Below, piece after piece: positions 852-12,254 of a stretch of DNA of 22,215 nt. The stretch is from a virus. Location of the stretch: the UHGV virus genome UHGV-0087471. One strand, written 5' to 3'. How positions within the stretch are numbered: position 1 is the first letter of the stretch; every line of letters starts with the position of its first letter. The notes under the pieces were generated by a model that was given only the letters and a program-made list of their open reading frames with translations, did no database searches and was not told the DNA's origin. A program made the position numbers and the translations under genes.

Positions 852-1151
852 ATGAAACTTAAATATTCTGGCTTAACTGCCAGTGGCAAAACTCGCACTA
901 AATTCATGCGCGGTGATATTTACCGCGACCAGTACGGCGGCACGGTAATGATTAAGGGCGTGGAGGAACGGCGCGTAACCTACCGTCGTGAAGGCTACGA
1001 ATATGATTGCGTGATGCCTGTTTATCAGTTCGATCGTGATTTTTCTCTGGTGCAGGCCGTACCGCGTAACGTGCCCACCAGCAGGGAGAAAGCACGCGCC
1101 AATATTCAGGAAATAAAAAAGATGCTTAACGTATTCAGGGGTAAAAAATGA
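852..1151 (+). CDS. Hypothetical protein (99 aa)
   Basis: ORF with GGAG upstream; stop overlaps primase start (ATGA at 1148..1151), suggesting translational coupling. Confidence 0.45.
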   Translation: MKLKYSGLTASGKTRTKFMRGDIYRDQYGGTVMIKGVEERRVTYRREGYEYDCVMPVYQFDRDFSLVQAVPRNVPTSREKARANIQEIKKMLNVFRGKK

Positions 1152-2896
1152 AACTGGCACCGAACGTAAAAAAACAGCCACGCGGAATAAAACACAAAGA
1201 CACAGAGGTAATTATTTTCGCGGGTAGTGATGCCTGGTCGCACGCGAAACAATGGCAGGAGCAGGATGGCCCCGCATCCGGCGATAATGTGCCGCCTGTG
1301 TGGCTTGGGCCAAATCAGCTTGCCGAACTTGATGCACTGAAAATTGTTCCGGATGGAAAAAAACGCGTAAGGCTGTACCAGGCCGGAGAACTGGATTTGG
1401 TGGAGACCAAAAAGATTGGTCAGAAGCTGGCGGCGGCAGATATTCAGGACGCAAATTTTTACCCCGAAGGAATGCACGTCCAGAAGTGTGAAAACTGGCG
1501 GCGCTATCTGAATGCTGAGCGTGAAAATATTGCCGCAGGGCTTACCATGCCGGAGCAGAAAAATACGCAACTGGCACAAATGGCAGACAGTGAGCGCGCA
1601 CAGATGCTTGCTGGTCGATTTGATGGCGTTTGTGTGCATCCGGAAAGTGAAATCGTTCACGTATGGCGCGGCGGGGTATGGTGTCCGGTCAGCACAATGG
1701 AACTTAGCCGCGAAATGGTGGCGATCTATTCAGAGCACAGGGCCACTTTCAGCAAGCGCGTAATCAATAACGCCGTGGAAGCGTTAAAAGTTATTGCCGA
1801 ACCAATGGGCGAGCCGTCCGGTGATTTGCTGCCGTTTGCCAATGGTGCGCTTGACCTGAGAACAGGGGAATTTTCCTCTCACCAGCCGGATAACTGGATC
1901 ACCACACACAACGGCATTGAGTACACGCCGCCAGTACCAGGTGAGAATATCCGCGACAACGCGCCAAACTTTCATAAATGGCTTGATCACGCTGCCGGAA
2001 AAGACCCGGGCAAGATGATGCGCATATGTGCCGCGCTATACATGATTATGGCGAACCGGTACGACTGGCAGATGTTTATTGAGGCCACCGGAGACGGCGG
2101 GAGCGGCAAGAGCACTTTCACGCACATAGCCAGCCTTCTGGCAGGGAAACAGAACACCGTAAGCGCTGAGATGACATCACTCGATGATGCTGGTGGGCGT
2201 GCGCAGGTTGTCGGAAGTCGGCTTATTGTCCTGGCAGACCAGCCGAAATATACAGGCGAAGGCACGGGCATCAAGAAAATCACGGGCGGCGACCCTGTGG
2301 AGATTAACCCGAAATATGAAAAGCGATTCACGACCATAATCAGGGCTGTGGTACTGGCGACCAACAACAACCCGATGATATTCACGGAACGGGCCGGAGG
2401 CGTGTCACGTCGTCGCGTGATTTTCCAGTTCGACAACATTGTAAGGGAGGACGAAAAAGACAAGGATTTGCCGGAGAAGGTCGCGGCTGAAATCCCCGTA
2501 ATTATACGCCGCTTGCTGGCTAATTTTGCCGACCCTGAAAAGGCACGGGCTTTACTCCTGGAACAGCGCGACGGTGATGAAGCACTGGCGATAAAGCAAC
2601 AGACGGATCCGGTTATTGAGTTTTGCCAGTTCCTGAATTTTCTGGAGGAAGCACGCGGCCTGATGATGGGTGGCGGTGGCGATTCCGTGAAGTACACGAC
2701 CAGAAACAGCCTTTACCGCGTCTATCTGGCGTTTATGGCATACGCAGGAAGAAGCAAGCCGCTAAACGTGGCTGAGTTCAGCAAGGCCATGAAGCCAGCG
2801 GCAAAAGTTTACGGACATGAATATATTACGCGGAAAGTTAAGGGAGTAACGCAGACCAACGCAATTACAACGGATGATTGTGACGCGTTTTTATAA
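1148..2896 (+). CDS. Phage/plasmid primase-helicase (P4 alpha-like / D5-type NTPase), satellite replication initiator
   Basis: 582-aa ORF with Walker A P-loop (ATGDGGSGKSTFT) in the middle of the protein followed by a helicase-like region; size and position immediately upstream of an iteron array are typical of PICI/P4 pri-rep proteins. Confidence 0.8.
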   Translation: MKLAPNVKKQPRGIKHKDTEVIIFAGSDAWSHAKQWQEQDGPASGDNVPPVWLGPNQLAELDALKIVPDGKKRVRLYQAGELDLVETKKIGQKLAAADIQDANFYPEGMHVQKCENWRRYLNAERENIAAGLTMPEQKNTQLAQMADSERAQMLAGRFDGVCVHPESEIVHVWRGGVWCPVSTMELSREMVAIYSEHRATFSKRVINNAVEALKVIAEPMGEPSGDLLPFANGALDLRTGEFSSHQPDNWITTHNGIEYTPPVPGENIRDNAPNFHKWLDHAAGKDPGKMMRICAALYMIMANRYDWQMFIEATGDGGSGKSTFTHIASLLAGKQNTVSAEMTSLDDAGGRAQVVGSRLIVLADQPKYTGEGTGIKKITGGDPVEINPKYEKRFTTIIRAVVLATNNNPMIFTERAGGVSRRRVIFQFDNIVREDEKDKDLPEKVAAEIPVIIRRLLANFADPEKARALLLEQRDGDEALAIKQQTDPVIEFCQFLNFLEEARGLMMGGGGDSVKYTTRNSLYRVYLAFMAYAGRSKPLNVAEFSKAMKPAAKVYGHEYITRKVKGVTQTNAITTDDCDAFL

Positions 2897-2909
2897 TTTT
2901 TTGTAAAAG

Positions 2910-3142
2910 CCCTCTACCCCATCTACCTGAATGAAATAAACGCATATTATTCAACATGATAAGTGGGTAGAGGGATAGGTAGAAGGCTAATAAAACCCCT
3001 CTACCTCCTCTACCATGATTAAGGTCGTTTGTGAGGGGCGGGTAGAGGATGGGTAGAGGGCCACGAAAAGCCCTCTACCCATCTGAAAGCCGCGCCATTA
3101 CTGACCTGAAAGATGATTAGGTAGAAGAGGTAGAGGAGGTGC
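2910..3142. repeat. Iteron array, putative replication origin of the satellite
   Basis: At least 8 copies of GGGTAGAGG / CCTCTACC(C) in both orientations within about 230 bp of non-coding DNA directly downstream of the primase gene (e.g. 2910-2928, 2965-2986, 2996-3014, 3035-3060, 3071-3083, 3117-3142). Confidence 0.55.
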
Positions 3143-3183
3143 ACCACAACCTAAAACTTTTTAAACGAGGGGGGTAAAAATAA

Positions 3184-4726: not shown

Positions 4727-5012
4727 GATGCGTCCTTTGTTGTAGTCAGAGACAGCAATAATAGGCCATGGTTTACTTCTTTTGTAAATTATTTGTTCGT
4801 GTTCTTTCGTGGTTGTTCGGTCTGACTGACAGGTGTTTACATACTGATTTTTATGTATATGTTGTAGCGTGGCACTCAGACGTGAGCCGCCACAATGCCG
4901 CCTGACCCCCTGCGCGATGCCGGGTTGATCTGCGAGATGCCGAGAGTGTCGGGCGGCGCTCCCCCCGTGTTGGTTTCACGTCCTGAATCTTAACCAATAC
5001 GAGAAAACCTTC

Positions 5013-6182
5013 ATGAAGAAATTAATCGAACTCCGCCAGCAAAAAAACGCCCTGAAAAACCAGATGCGATCCCTGCTGGAAAAAGCCGACAGTGAAAACC
5101 GTAGTCTGAACGCTGAAGAAGGCAAACAGTTTGATGAACTGCGTGCAAAAGCTGATGCCCTCGACACAGAAATTTCCCGCCTCGAGTCTGTGGCTGATGA
5201 AGAACGCAGCAAGCCAGGAACGGGCATCCAGAAATTATCATCTGATGAATTGCGTAACTACATCGTAACCGGAGATGTGCGATCACTGTCCACCAGCACT
5301 GACAGCGGCAGGGATGGCGGATATACCGTAATTCCTGAGCTTGATCGCGAAGTCATGCGCCAGCTACAGGATGACAGTGTTATGCGCGTGATCGCGACCG
5401 TGAAGACCGCAAAATCAAATGAGTTTCAGAAACTGGTTTCCACTGGCGGCGCAACTGTAGGACGAGGCACAGAAGGCAGCGCACGCAGTGAAACCAACAC
5501 CCCGAAAATTGAACGCGTAACCATCAAGTTGAATCCGATCTACGCCTACCCGAAAACCACGCAGGAAATCCTGGATTTTTCAGAGGTGGATATTCTGGGC
5601 TGGTTATCCTCCGAAATTGCCGACACGTTCGCCAGCACCGAAGAGGATGATTTTGTTAATGGCGACGGTAACGGCAAGCCGAAAGGCTTCATGGCTTACA
5701 CCCGTGCGGCGACCAGTGACAAAACCCGCGCTTTTGGCACCATTGAAAAAATAGTAGCGGCAAGTGGAACCGCCATTACAGCGGACGAACTGATCGACAT
5801 TCTCTACAAGCTGAAAGCGAAATACCGCAAAAATGCCGTATGGGTGATGAACTCGGGCACGGCAGGGACACTACAGAAGCTGAAAAATGAGAACGGCGAT
5901 TATATCTGGCGCGACAGCCTTAAAGAAGGTGCGCCGGATATGTTGCTTGGTCGTCCTGTTTACTGCCTGGAGTCCATGCCGGACATCGGCGCAGGAAAAG
6001 CACCGCTAGCGGTTGGCGATTTCAGTCGTGGTTATTTCATCGTTGATCATGTAACAGGGATTCGCACCCGACCGGACAACATTACTGAACCCGGATTCTA
6101 CAAGGTCCACACGGATAAATATCTGGGCGGTGGTGTGGTGGATTCAAACGCCATCAAAATTCTGGAAATGAAAGCTGGCTAG
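5013..6182 (+). CDS. Major capsid protein, HK97-like fold (389 aa)
   Basis: N-terminal coiled-coil delta/scaffold-like domain followed by a capsid-type region (GNGKPKG, LLGRPV..ES motifs); size typical of HK97-family capsid proteins. Confidence 0.85.
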   Translation: MKKLIELRQQKNALKNQMRSLLEKADSENRSLNAEEGKQFDELRAKADALDTEISRLESVADEERSKPGTGIQKLSSDELRNYIVTGDVRSLSTSTDSGRDGGYTVIPELDREVMRQLQDDSVMRVIATVKTAKSNEFQKLVSTGGATVGRGTEGSARSETNTPKIERVTIKLNPIYAYPKTTQEILDFSEVDILGWLSSEIADTFASTEEDDFVNGDGNGKPKGFMAYTRAATSDKTRAFGTIEKIVAASGTAITADELIDILYKLKAKYRKNAVWVMNSGTAGTLQKLKNENGDYIWRDSLKEGAPDMLLGRPVYCLESMPDIGAGKAPLAVGDFSRGYFIVDHVTGIRTRPDNITEPGFYKVHTDKYLGGGVVDSNAIKILEMKAG

Positions 6183-8013: not shown

Positions 8014-8308
8014 AGCCAAAATTACACCTGATGAAGTCAGGGCACATCTTCGACTTGATGATGATTTATCCGGTGAAGGCGAACTTCTGAAAATGTATAC
8101 CGATGCGGCGCTGGAAGCCTGCCAGAAGCATATCGGGAAACGTTTTGAAGACGGGCTGGAATTTACCCCGGCAATGCGTGTTGGTTGCCTGATGTACATC
8201 GCTTTCCTGTACGAGAACCGGGAAGCGGTTTCACCAGTGGAGCACTCGGAACTGCCTATGGCTATTTCTGCGCTCTGGTCAGTTTATCGTGACGTAGGGG
8301 TGTACTGA
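8006..8308 (+). CDS. Head-tail connector / DNA-packaging protein, gp6-like (100 aa)
   Basis: N-terminal ITPDEVRAHLRLDDD...E..LLK.Y.DAA.EA pattern typical of gp6-like connectors; AAGGGAG RBS; start ATG 8006 overlaps portal stop. Confidence 0.6.
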   Translation: MSEAKITPDEVRAHLRLDDDLSGEGELLKMYTDAALEACQKHIGKRFEDGLEFTPAMRVGCLMYIAFLYENREAVSPVEHSELPMAISALWSVYRDVGVY

Positions 8309-8748
8309 TGCCGTGGCAACCATTAAGGCGATGCACTGAGCCTGGCTGTAATAAGCGCGTGAAGTCCGGCAAGTGTGAAGAGCACAGGCGGGCTGCATGG
8401 CGTGCAGAGGATGCCAGACGGGGACACCGCCGCGCGCGCGGGTATTCCCGACAGTGGGACAAATACCGCGCCCTGTACCTGAGCAAAAACCCGTTATGCG
8501 TGAGTTGTCTGGCTAAGGGGATTTATACGCCAGCTCTTGTGGTGGATCACATCATTCCCATCAATGGCGGCGGTGATGTTCTCTTCTGGCCTGAGTGGAA
8601 CCACCAGGCATTGTGCCAGACGTGCCACAACCGTAAGACGACACGGGAAGATCCCGCCACGAAAGCGAACCGTAAGGCGGGCATGTATCGCGATCAGGAA
8701 GAACGGGCGGCACACCGTAACGACTGGATGTATGGCGATGATGACTGA
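8308..8748 (+). CDS. HNH endonuclease (terminase-associated, 146 aa)
   Basis: Cys-rich N-terminus (CTEPGCN...C..H) and HNH core (VDHIIPINGGG...NHQALCQTCHNRKT); positioned directly upstream of terS as in HNH-dependent cos packaging systems. Confidence 0.85.
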   Translation: MPWQPLRRCTEPGCNKRVKSGKCEEHRRAAWRAEDARRGHRRARGYSRQWDKYRALYLSKNPLCVSCLAKGIYTPALVVDHIIPINGGGDVLFWPEWNHQALCQTCHNRKTTREDPATKANRKAGMYRDQEERAAHRNDWMYGDDD

Positions 8749-9036
8749 ACAGGAGCAAAACAGGCTGATACGTGGGTTGATAAGGCAGCGTGACACATGG
8801 AAGACACAGGAGACAGGGCACAAAGCCAACAGGACAGGGCGCACAAAACGCACCACAGCGAAGCGATTAACCGACCGTGACCGCGAGGTCATGGAATGTT
8901 TTCGCAATCGCTGGTGAGGCCGTCAGAGGGGGTGGGGGTGGTTTTCAGGACGAAACCGTCCCTGCCGGACACCGACCGCCTCCCCAAATTTTTATGCACG
9001 GGAATTTTTTGAAAAATAATCTGACGAAAAATAAGC

Positions 9037-9393
9037 ATGGCAAGACCACCGAAAGCCCCCGCCTACCTGGATGATATCGCCGTGAAGCAGTGGCGGGAAA
9101 AATCGCGGCAGCTTGCGGAACGGGGAGACCTGACCCCCGCCGACTGGAGCAATCTGGAACTGTATTGCGTCAACTACTCCATTTACCGGAAAGCCGTTGC
9201 AGACCTTGCGGCGCGCGGGTTCAGCATTGTTAACAGTCAGGGCGGCGAGAGCAGAAACCCCGCATTAAGCGCAAAATCCGACGCTGAAAGAGTGATGATA
9301 AAAATGGCCTCCTTGCTCGGTTTTGACCCGATAAGCCGCCGTAAAAATCCACCGGAAACAGAAGAAGAGGACGAGCTTGACCGCCTGGAATAA
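9037..9393 (+). CDS. terS: Terminase small subunit (P27-family-like, 118 aa)
   Basis: Sequence pattern (W...L..G.L...D...L..YC..Y..Y..A...L...G......G....NP) and position immediately upstream of and overlapping the large terminase gene. Confidence 0.75.
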   Translation: MARPPKAPAYLDDIAVKQWREKSRQLAERGDLTPADWSNLELYCVNYSIYRKAVADLAARGFSIVNSQGGESRNPALSAKSDAERVMIKMASLLGFDPISRRKNPPETEEEDELDRLE

Positions 9394-11038
9394 GTACGCA
9401 GAAGACGTAAAAACGGGCAAAATTCCGGCCTGTAAACGGCTGAAACAGGCCGTTAAACGGTACTTTTCGGACCTTGAAAGCCCCCTTTACACGTTCGATC
9501 GTGAGGTTGTGGAGCGGTTTATTGCCTTTTCCAGGGTGTGCGCGCACGTAAAAGGGCCGATGCGTGGCAGACCCATTGAGCTGGAGCCGTGGCAGCAGTT
9601 CGCCTTTGCGTGCATCCTCGGCTTTAAGGTTAAGGCCACCGGACGGCGCAAATACACGAGCGCCTTTATCGAAGTGCCGCGCAAAAATGCGAAATCCACG
9701 ACCGCCGCGATTCTGGCTAACTGGTTTCTGATTATGGAGAACGGTCAGCAGGATATCTACACCGCAGCGGTGAGCCGTGACCAGGCGCGGATCGTCTTTG
9801 ATGATGCGCGTCAGATGTGCCTTTTATCCCGACCGTTACGCAGGCGGGTGAATATTCAGGCGCATAAGGTGATACACCCGAAAACCAACAGCCTGTTAAA
9901 GCCACTGGCAGCAAAAGCGGCAACCATTGAGGGGACAAACCCGAGTCTTGCCATTGTGGATGAATATCACCTGCACCCAGACAACGGGGTTTATTCCGCA
10001 CTTGATATGGGGATGGGCGCACGTCCCGAAGGGCTGTTATTTGCCATTACCACATCGGGCAGTAACGTCGTTTCAGCCTGTAAGCAGCACTATGATTATT
10101 GCTGCCAGATCCTGGACGGCGAAGAGGTCAACGATTCAATTTTTGTACTGATTTACGAACTGGACGACGAAAACGAGGTTGATGATCCGGCGATGTGGAT
10201 AAAGGCTAACCCTAACATCGATGTTTCCGTCGATCGTGAAAAACTGGCCTCAACCATCCAGAAAGCGCGGGGTATTCCGTCGCAATGGGTGGAAATGCTC
10301 ACCAAGCGATTCAATATCTGGTGTCAGGGGGCTACGCCGTGGATGGGTAACGGTGCATGGGCGGAGTGTGCCGGAACGTTCGCGGAGGCGGATTTATACG
10401 GGCAGGAGTGCTACGCGGGGCTGGACTTATCATCAACCAGCGATATTTCCAGCGTGTGCTATGCCTTCCCGGTCGGTAAAAAGATTATGCTGGTTTCCCG
10501 TCACTATCTGCCGGAATTTCAGCTACAGAATCCCGCCAATAAAAACCGCGCCATCTATCGCCAGTGGGTAAAGGCGGGCTGGATACGCACAACACCGGGT
10601 GACTGCATTGATTATGACCGTATCCGTGATGACATCATGGCGGATGCAGAGAATTTCAATATCAGGCTGGTGGGCTTCGATACATGGAACGCCACGCACC
10701 TGAGGACGCAGTTACAGGGCGCAGGATTTGAGGTGGAGCCGTTCCCGCAAACCTACCTCAGATTCAGTCCGGCGGCGAAATCGTTCGAAGTTTTTGTTAA
10801 CCGGAAGGTGATTGTGCATCGTGGTGATCCGGTGCTGGCCTGGTCAATGAGTAATGTTGTGATGCAGAGTGACGCGAACGCCAATATCAAGCCGAACAAG
10901 AAAAAATCATCCAACAAGATAGACCCGAGCGTTGCGGCGCTGATGGCGTTTGGCACATTCCAGGCAGAGCACGAGGACTTTGCATTCGATATGAGCGACA
11001 GCCACAAAGAGCGGCTTGCGGCGTTTGATGGGGTATGA
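9377..11038 (+). CDS. terL: Terminase large subunit (553 aa)
   Basis: Large ORF with terminase-type ATPase N-terminal half and nuclease C-terminal half; appears to start with TTG at 9377 (GAGGA 6 nt upstream), overlapping terS. Confidence 0.9.
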   Translation: MTAWNKYAEDVKTGKIPACKRLKQAVKRYFSDLESPLYTFDREVVERFIAFSRVCAHVKGPMRGRPIELEPWQQFAFACILGFKVKATGRRKYTSAFIEVPRKNAKSTTAAILANWFLIMENGQQDIYTAAVSRDQARIVFDDARQMCLLSRPLRRRVNIQAHKVIHPKTNSLLKPLAAKAATIEGTNPSLAIVDEYHLHPDNGVYSALDMGMGARPEGLLFAITTSGSNVVSACKQHYDYCCQILDGEEVNDSIFVLIYELDDENEVDDPAMWIKANPNIDVSVDREKLASTIQKARGIPSQWVEMLTKRFNIWCQGATPWMGNGAWAECAGTFAEADLYGQECYAGLDLSSTSDISSVCYAFPVGKKIMLVSRHYLPEFQLQNPANKNRAIYRQWVKAGWIRTTPGDCIDYDRIRDDIMADAENFNIRLVGFDTWNATHLRTQLQGAGFEVEPFPQTYLRFSPAAKSFEVFVNRKVIVHRGDPVLAWSMSNVVMQSDANANIKPNKKKSSNKIDPSVAALMAFGTFQAEHEDFAFDMSDSHKERLAAFDGV

Positions 11039-11328
11039 CGAGAATGAGCGAAACCGAACTACTAAAAATAATCCGCCGTGTTACCGGAGCCAGCCAGACA
11101 GCAGACAAACAGGAGGCCACGCAGCCGGACAGCGTGATAGCCGAAAATTACGCGCGTGTGGTGGCTGAGGTGATGCGCCGTGACGGTATTGAGCTTAACG
11201 GCGTGGATATGCGCAACATACGAACCAGAGTCCTTGAGTTGCTGGCATACCGTCGCCGTTCTCAACAACGGAGGGAGAGCGCGAAAAATACTTATCAGTG
11301 GAAGAAGCCGGAACGGTTGCGGCGGTAA
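11035..11328 (+). CDS. Hypothetical protein (97 aa), last gene of packaging module
   Basis: ATG 11035 overlaps terL stop (ATGA); basic C-terminus; no recognisable motif. Confidence 0.4.
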   Translation: MTRMSETELLKIIRRVTGASQTADKQEATQPDSVIAENYARVVAEVMRRDGIELNGVDMRNIRTRVLELLAYRRRSQQRRESAKNTYQWKKPERLRR

Positions 11329-12254
11329 CTTGCAGATATTCCCGATAACGTAAAATTGCGTTGGCTGGCAGAGTGCAAATTTGCACGATGGCCTAACCCA
11401 TTGATTGTTTCGGAAACCTCAATTTGAGGAGGCCGGACAGCGTGACGGAGGGTGACAACCAGTGACACGCCGTGACAAAAAGACGGTTTAACCATCCATT
11501 AAAAATCGACGTGATTTTGTGCTTTCCGTATGAGGTGGCCAGCGTCATTTTTTAGTGAGAAATTCTGGTCAGGGGCGTTGGCTGAATGGTTATTTTATCG
11601 TGCCCATGCACAGGGAGGGGGCGGGTAAAATCTCTGGAGGTGATGCCTGTCAGGACCGCCGCCTGACCCTTCCTCACATCGCCGCAGGTTCGAAAACTTT
11701 TTTTGTGTCAGGTGCGCACGGAATTGATAGATAAAACCTATATTAAAAAATCACGGAAGCCGTGCCATTGCTGGAGCAGTCAAAAATTCCACATCTCACG
11801 GCAGGCAAAAAAAGCGAATTTTGGGCCAGTTGAGGATAAAAAAGGGCTCACTAGTTTTGCACATCCTGGTATCGGGGTCGTCAGCCTCCCGCCAGTAACT
11901 AGGTAACTAATCACGCTGGTGGGCATGATGCCGATGCCGGGATCTCGGTATCGGTTTATCTGTGATCATCCACCAGCTTGATGACAGATAACAGGGAGTC
12001 ATAACGGTTAAAGCGTGTTGATCTTTGTTCGTGGTTGTTCGATATTGTTCGTAAAGCGGTGTAGTTAATGGTGTAGTTAATTTCGCTGTTTTTGACGAGC
12101 TTATCATTTGCAACGCAATGAAAAACAAAGACTAATTAACAAAATGCTATAAATGATAGTTATCTATCATGTGGAGTAGATTGGTCAGGCAAATAAGCTC
12201 TTGTCAGCGGCAGGGCGTTCTGCCGATAACCGTAACCGAAGATGATAACTGACA

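Follow-up and report, generated by a model that had tools for sequence, protein, structure and literature searches.

The stretch of DNA analyzed here (the window, 22,215 bp in its whole length) is 100% identical to E. coli ST131-type chromosomes, e.g., SaT040, and carries a capsid-forming PICI (cf-PICI) inserted between cspD/yljB and clpS. The integrase and alpA genes are located just left of the window, and the features within it are listed in Table 1. Directly after the primase gene lies the probable origin of the island, in which at least 10 copies of GGGTAGAGG/CCTCTACCC, iterons of the GGTAGAGG type, are arranged in both orientations around an AT-rich stretch.

Table 1. Features of the cf-PICI in the window, and positions of helper-embedded relatives (last row, contig coordinates).
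Feature	Position	Strand	Remark
Primase	1148-2896		
Probable origin	~2905-3145		
SSB			after primase and before capsid in gene order
Capsid	5013-6182		
Protease, portal, connector			between capsid and HNH in gene order
HNH	8308-8748		
Cos-like region	~8925-9030		HNH-terS gap
TerS, P27/HK97-type	9037-9393		
TerL	9377-11038		
97-aa ORF, phrog_1561	11035-11328	+	function unknown; last of the late operon
46-bp module with palindrome CCTCAAtTTGAGG	11392-11437		adjoins the array on the left
GTGAC array, four pentamers	11442-11446, 11452-11456, 11462-11466, 11472-11476	+	exact 10-bp period
Array letters	11442-11476	+	CGTGACggag GGTGACaacc AGTGACacgc CGTGAC; block 92-96% conserved in other PICIs
3' flank AAAAAGACGGT	11477-11487	+	kept with the array; A-run of 4 to 6 bases in relatives
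Terminator-like hairpin and T-run ATGAGGTGGCCAGCGTCATTTTTT	11530-11553	+	3' of the array; cleaner hairpin in relatives, ATGACGTGGCCAACGTCATTTTTT
HK97-type cos-like site	11613-11704	+	G-run, GGACCGCCGCCTGA / CCCTTCC...CATCGCCGCAGGTTCGAAAAC, T7
Predicted cos cut	11666/11667		after 11666
Chi sequence GCTGGTGG	11915-11922	+	
Chi sequence GCTGGTGG	11970-11977	-	
TTGTTCG arm repeat	12025-12051		three copies, 10-bp period; 3-4 copies between attL core and int
GGTGTAGT(T/C)AAT arm repeat	12058-12081		two copies; two next to int
Crossover core (att)	12149-12169		
Helper-embedded cf-PICI	L277 7572-8257 and 12152-16885; L189 5261-5946		

The C-terminal tail of the protein encoded by the last late-operon ORF is very basic, and AlphaFold models the protein as three helices (pLDDT 70). 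Neither a fold match (Foldseek) nor a PDB, Pfam, or NCBIfam relative was found for it, PHROGs contained nothing usable, and a search for relatives of the 97-aa ORF in genome contigs gave no matches. The protein is nearly invariant among islands, with or without an array behind its gene.

The non-coding tail of PICIs, which extends from the last late gene to the terminator, cos, and att sequences, is with strong support a patchwork of phage-like cis sites. The presence of cos sites in this tail is already known (PMC6092414, PMC6739421, PMC10111431). In the window, the 46-bp module shares 89% identity, on the opposite strand, with a stretch of roi/antirepressor coding sequence from lambdoid and Stx phages. 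When 50,697 phage records were searched by BLAST with the array region, this roi scrap alone was recovered, and the array was not found. In class A islands, the array is followed by a different hairpin with a T8 run. Positions 11329-11437, which include the 46-bp module, match sites in roughly a thousand E. coli genomes, and the module by itself also matches inside prophage antirepressor genes.

Four GTGAC motifs at 10-bp phasing had been pointed out in this tail by the initial annotation, which placed them in non-coding DNA downstream of the last late gene, near the right end of the island. Both the letters and a shuffle test confirm the phasing. GTGAC shows no enrichment by itself in the window (32 matches vs. 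35 expected), and of all 5-mers in the 22,215 bp, it alone recurs four times at a fixed period, for periods between 6 and 15 bp. None of 2000 dinucleotide-preserving shuffles produced any phased four-copy array of a 5-mer, for which the analytic expectation is ~2e-5 per window. The array is 35 bp long, is unannotated in RefSeq, and starts 113 bp past the stop codon of the last late-operon ORF, in agreement with the non-coding location; "near the right end" holds loosely, the att core being a further 673 bp to the right. The AAAAAGACGGT flank was seen in all array-bearing classes, and the sequence beyond it is TTTAACC... or ATTTAAATAG.... The possibility that the array is the island's own origin was rejected, since the GGGTAGAGG/CCTCTACCC iterons adjoin the primase gene and none are present near the array.

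In other PICIs, the array forms part of a conserved block, CGTGACGGAG(A/G)GTGACAACCAGTGACAC(A/G)C(A/C)GTGAC-A(4-6)-GACGGT, which is always located 3' of the phrog_1561 ORF, co-oriented with it and 9-404 bp downstream. In class A islands (L164, L189, L253, and others) the array is found right behind the stop codon and has a fifth copy, and in a phoQ-type cf-PICI and in the window it is preceded by 66-404 bp of other modules. E. coli 042, L150, and L164 carry it in PICIs that lack terminase and HK97-type capsid genes altogether. Between island types, identity is 96% over the block and only 83-88% over the adjacent 117 bp, and the upstream flanks are unrelated. In total, 227 of 5426 complete E. 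coli genomes (~4%) have the array, always under "no annotated feature." In E. coli PICIs, the array is an optional, portable mosaic module within the 3' non-coding tail.

The phasing is kept in these other PICIs, and copy number, four to five per array, changes by exact 10-bp units; for example, L251 and L309/L311 have four copies, and their relatives five. GTGAC is invariant within the register, the sole core variant being GCGAC in the outermost upstream copy of the 042 type, and the few substitutions observed fall at -1 or spacer positions (L257, L269/L273, and the window). The five units consist of GTGAC followed by ATACC, GGAGA, AACCA, ACACA, and AAAAA, i.e., of identical cores and unrelated spacers, and because neutral decay of a tandem duplication would look different, selection on the cores is indicated. 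Conservation of the block, of the cores, and of the copy-number steps argues for a selected array that is bound by protein on one face, and the comparison of sequences strongly supports the GTGAC motifs as selected, helically phased direct-repeat sites for one DNA-binding protein. The general part of the initial interpretation, cooperative protein binding to same-face sites, is supported in this way, also by the maintenance of the block as a unit in several flank contexts; the two specific candidates named with it, integrase at attR and TerS, did not hold (see below), and a regulator, also named there, is conceivable.

Other short repeats were noticed in the same tail position. The fis-type cf-PICI of L006 (~6110-6135) has CTGTCAAAACTTGTCATG in the place of the array, with two TGTCA motifs 10 bp apart, and other islands have AAACTACG as direct and inverted repeats there; the slot seems to hold alternative short-repeat modules. 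In L200, L270, L271, L276, L284, and others, repeated units of ~58 bp are found 0-400 bp past the phrog_1561 stop codon; each unit ends in a copy of the 3' end of the ORF (GGCGGTAAC) and contains a palindrome, GCGCAAAATTGCGC, CCTCAATTTTGAGG, or CCCCCATTGGGGG, the latter two resembling lambda O iterons (ATCCCTCAAATTGGGGGAT).

Covariation of the array with island genes was examined in 65 islands having enough downstream sequence (23 with and 42 without the array). Among these, its presence was independent of TerS, TerL, HNH, capsid type, primase type, integrase, and AlpA; the TerS class of 99-100% identity and that of 87-89% each have members with and without the array. Clustering of all ORFs followed by Fisher tests did not reveal any gene cluster specific to array-bearing islands. 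Since no island gene covaries with the array, these data point to a ligand that either comes from outside the island or is common to all islands. The best-supported statement on function is that the array probably binds, cooperatively and on one face, a protein which is not specific to array-bearing islands.

Similar clusters are found in phage replication genes. A scan for four GTGAC at 10 bp returned mostly unrelated GC-rich repeats, and also an E. albertii prophage with six copies in the 5' part of a gene for a DnaT-domain O-like initiator, which adjoins a lambda-P-like gene. Phage vB_EcoS-813R8 has, over 40 kb, no GTGAC arrays other than two clusters in the gene annotated as "DNA replication protein O"; these comprise 5 and 4 copies, spaced by 10-11 bp and all in one orientation. 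The two-cluster pair is also present in Tritos, where the gene is annotated as "N-terminal phage replisome organiser," in E. coli strain 135, in E. albertii, and in Aeromonas phage pAEv1818. Overall, the phage clusters have the form (C)GTGAC(A), repeated three to six times at 10-11 bp. All 47 phage units and all nine PICI units contain GTGAC, a pentamer shared partly by construction, as the phage family was found by scanning for the pattern itself. The +1 base is A in 28/47 phage and 7/9 PICI units, and the -1 base is C in 40/47 (85%) vs. 3/9. In the phage O genes, GTGAC is invariant amid variable spacers and is read in three frames across the O protein (…SRNVTRGHIDVTT…), which argues for constraint on the DNA. 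These clusters are analogous to the ori iterons in lambda gene O and to the G38P boxes in gene 38 of SPP1.

Seven unrelated families of GTGAC arrays were examined. Replication-type contexts surround five of them: in three the array adjoins a DnaB-helicase gene, in one a DUF1376 gene, and the fifth lies in what was judged by eye to be a plasmid-like field of iterons. Of the remaining two, one lies between terL and portal, and the neighbors of the other (L052) have no family match. An unrelated GC-rich phage family (L160 2490-2545, L243, L128, and four more viral contigs) has five GGTGACA at 10 bp in the short terL-portal gap.

The PICI array and the O-gene clusters are alike in having a GTGAC core usually followed by A, a 10(-11)-bp period, three to six copies in one orientation, and variable spacers. 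They differ in that the PICI array is outside an initiator gene, is strictly 10-bp phased, and less often has C before the core. Its A-rich flank, an A5 run and ~45 bp at ~62% A+T, is 3' of the array; this short stretch was considered as a possible AT-rich unwinding element, and relative to the pentamer orientation it lies on the side opposite to that of the phage cluster; the island does not have an initiator of this type, and the likeness is one of sequence, not of demonstrated common descent. A 17-nt identity with the E. albertii/strain 135 cluster, AGTGACACGCCGTGACA, is not significant after multiple comparisons (estimated P ~0.2). As in the iterons of phage origins, at least three one-orientation repeats are present at about one helical turn (four in the window, four or five in relatives), and their core motif is that of the phage clusters, the phages having been found via that motif. 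The array is neither inside nor adjacent to a cognate initiator gene, and the island has no such gene. Being ectopic, the array would be at most a copy or mimic of an origin, and not itself a member of such origins.

The reading tentatively preferred here, as one possibility among several, is that of an ectopic initiator-binding array that could act as a decoy or as an auxiliary origin. The candidate ligand would be the replisome organizer/O-like DnaT-domain initiator of a very common lambdoid E. coli prophage family; the gene of this initiator itself holds two clusters of the same motif and spacing. Upon phage induction or infection, the initiator would load cooperatively onto the array of the satellite. 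One outcome could be titration of the initiator away from the phage origin, i.e., interference by an origin decoy; the other could be extra, helper-driven replication of the satellite starting beside its cos site. Arrest of lambda by ectopic lambda origins (plasmid-borne ori-lambda, the "inhibition phenotype") and initiator titration have been described (PMC4488673, PMC3349717). The array resembles these decoys in that initiator-binding repeats on another replicon could titrate a phage initiator; the decoys differ in being laboratory constructs with the true lambda origin, and a satellite-borne decoy is a proposal made here. The fuller version of the reading, in which a portable array mimics the origin iterons of a widespread helper-prophage family and captures their initiator, either sabotaging the helper or gaining replication, is more doubtful.

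Confidence in an initiator-binding array is kept low because the phages were discovered by the motif, the O type is common, the -1 base and the side of the A-rich flank differ, and the island has a replicon of its own. With 2036 of 5426 E. coli genomes (38%) having the O-gene segment, its co-occurrence with the cos type, seen in four of the seven E. coli phages having the O gene (813R8, 606R7, 689R5, and 640R1 also carry a cos matching 11613-11704), is weak evidence. With its own primase and origin, the island does not need a second origin, and most PICIs that share the same last gene are array-less. On the supporting side, a five-copy-array cf-PICI (L277/L189) sits in the terL gene of a prophage that is 95% identical to vB_EcoS-813R8 over terL and tail genes; helper-embedded satellites of this kind have been described (PMC10111431).

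Phased direct-repeat arrays and iterons as such are well known, and no description of the GTGAC array was found in the PICI/cf-PICI literature searched. The biology of PICIs and cf-PICIs has so far been explained through satellite proteins (AlpA, Rpp, TerS, and capsid genes) and borrowed cos sites. A conserved array without a cognate island gene, beside a helper-type cos, would indicate a further cis-DNA layer in the interplay between helper and satellite. If the ligand is a helper initiator, the array would be a simple determinant of helper specificity or interference, a natural instance of the "origin decoy" idea hitherto known from laboratory constructs only, and a case of molecular piracy through DNA mimicry rather than through a satellite protein. 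Even with another ligand, these 35 bp, present in ~4% of complete E. coli genomes, are a clean handle.

It is unlikely, though worth weighing, that an island or host protein acts on the array at the end of the late operon, either the phrog_1561 product or an OmpR/CpxR-type winged-helix regulator on tandem 10-bp half-sites, with a role as a roadblock, in termination control, or in DNA architecture. Consistent with such a role, the array is invariably 3' of phrog_1561 and co-oriented with it, and a hairpin or terminator follows within 20-60 bp; the basic C-terminal tail of the phrog_1561 product fits as well. OmpR half-sites have the sequence GTTACA or GAAACA, from which GTGACA differs by one base, but the spacers of the array are GC-rich, unlike OmpR sites. 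About two thirds of the islands with near-identical phrog_1561 have no array, and the protein has no recognizable DNA-binding fold and no PDB, Pfam, or NCBIfam match, all of which speaks against an operon-end function.

The cos sites bear on two further proposals. The sequence at 11613-11704 has the layout of the HK97 cos junction (G-run, GACCGCCGCC..., cut, and T-tract) and aligns with the gap between HNH and terS in HK97-like phage mEp235 and in several induced E. coli prophages, among them the HK97-like vB_EcoS-813R8; the cut was predicted by alignment with HK97 ends. The island has two such HK97-type cos-like sites, one after the last ORF and the other in its own HNH-terS gap, where conservation among cf-PICI types is 93%. 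In a set of 65 related islands, the window is the only one to combine cf-PICI packaging genes with a helper-type cos after the last ORF. The Chi sequences of Table 1 form the opposed arms of a 13-nt inverted repeat 250-300 bp right of the predicted cut, and the orientation of one of them would stop RecBCD that comes in from that end.

HK97-type TerS binds a single 15-bp site located at +15 to +29 downstream of the cut (PMC11331095). The array of the window is ~190 bp upstream of the predicted cut and not next to it on the side packaged first, so binding of TerS, as suggested in the initial annotation, finds no support in the position; moreover, L005, L150, and L164 have the array without terS, it occurs in PICIs lacking both terS and terL, and it is present in some and absent from other islands with identical TerS. 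That the array is not the recognition site (cosB or pac) of the island's TerS is strongly supported. A cosB of the Rpp type was also rejected, as the last ORF does not encode Rpp and is without a relative in PDB. The array is comparable to the Rpp-TerS cosB of EcCICFT073, to cosB R-elements, and to the HK97 TerS site in being a cis site in the PICI 3' tail near a cos-like sequence. It differs in that no Rpp homolog is present, in its position upstream of the cut, in its independence of TerS type, and in often being without a nearby cos.

A looser connection to packaging, in which terminase, HNH, or an accessory factor would use the array to slow or position the motor before the terminal cut, as with lambda cosQ/cosB, is quite unlikely. 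Its appeal lies in the spacing, since the distance from the array to the G-run of an HK97-type cos is ~45 bp in those class A PICIs that lack terminase genes, and 137 bp in the window, the array coming first in both, and in the one unrelated viral-contig family with a GTGAC array between terL and portal. Many array-bearing cf-PICIs, on the other hand, have no cos-like site within 400 bp of the array, only one 2.4 kb upstream in the HNH-terS gap, and L252 has a cos directly after the ORF and no array; the array is therefore not an obligatory part of cos. It is also not found in the HNH-terS gaps of HK97, mEp235, or 813R8, it does not covary with TerS, and HK97 TerS uses one site, downstream of the cut.

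Still less probable is a functionless relic, which could be a tandem duplication of 10 bp or a fragment of a phage O gene that was picked up and passively moved by recombination. The tail does contain copies of the 3' ends of ORFs and pieces of phage, the roi fragment among them, copy number moves in slippage-like 10-bp steps, and the array variants are so closely related that they have diverged too little to test selection strongly. Nevertheless, neutral decay of a tandem duplication does not leave the cores identical and the spacers unrelated, and the block, which keeps its exact boundaries in three or more unrelated flank contexts, exceeds its neighbors in conservation.

That the array acts as RNA, as a structured or protein-bound element of the late-operon 3' UTR, is highly improbable: the position between stop codon and terminator implies that the array is probably transcribed, but its fold is no better than that of shuffled sequences (z = -0.59), the predicted pairs do not covary, the unit deletions of relatives would break the predicted hairpin, and no Rfam match was found for the array region at E<=1. 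A structured element was rejected on these negative results of Rfam, single-sequence fold, and alignment fold.

The proposal that the motifs are integrase arm-type (or Xis/AlpA) sites marking attR is likewise very improbable and is largely refuted. In its favor, direct repeats phased at 10 bp are common among arm-type sites, and GTCAC is part of the lambda arm consensus. The crossover core, ATA[G/A]ATGATAGTTAT[T/C]TATCA (ATAAATGATAGTTATCTATCA), was mapped against the K-12 empty site and the left junction, and is 673 bp from the array end at 11476. The repeats common to attL and attR are TTGTTCG (three copies in attR) and GGTGTAGTTAAT (two copies), and these occupy both arms. No GTGAC array exists at the left end, where matching arm-type sites would be expected, and no other phased GTGAC/GTCAC pair turned up on either strand when the entire island, attL to attR, was scanned. 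In addition, L277 has the array alongside a different arm motif, GCGGGTTA, and L300, with a 97% identical integrase, is without the array.

Lying outside the ~250 bp around the core, having no counterpart at attL, and not covarying with integrase, the array was rejected as a set of att arm sites, and the claim that it marks the attR side fell with them; that it is not part of attR is strongly supported. Arm arrays such as lambda P'1-P'3 and those in attP of P4-family islands share with it short direct repeats that are spaced by about a helical turn and lie in a non-coding part of an integrative element, and are unlike it in distance from the core, in motif, and in having an attL counterpart.

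TTGTTCG is also found two to three times, at a 10-11 bp period, in the divergent intergenic region 5' of the capsid/packaging operon (window 4793-4822, in addition to 12025-12051; L003 1150-1290), and one protein, an integrase N-domain or an AlpA/Xis-type protein, may act at both att and the late promoter.
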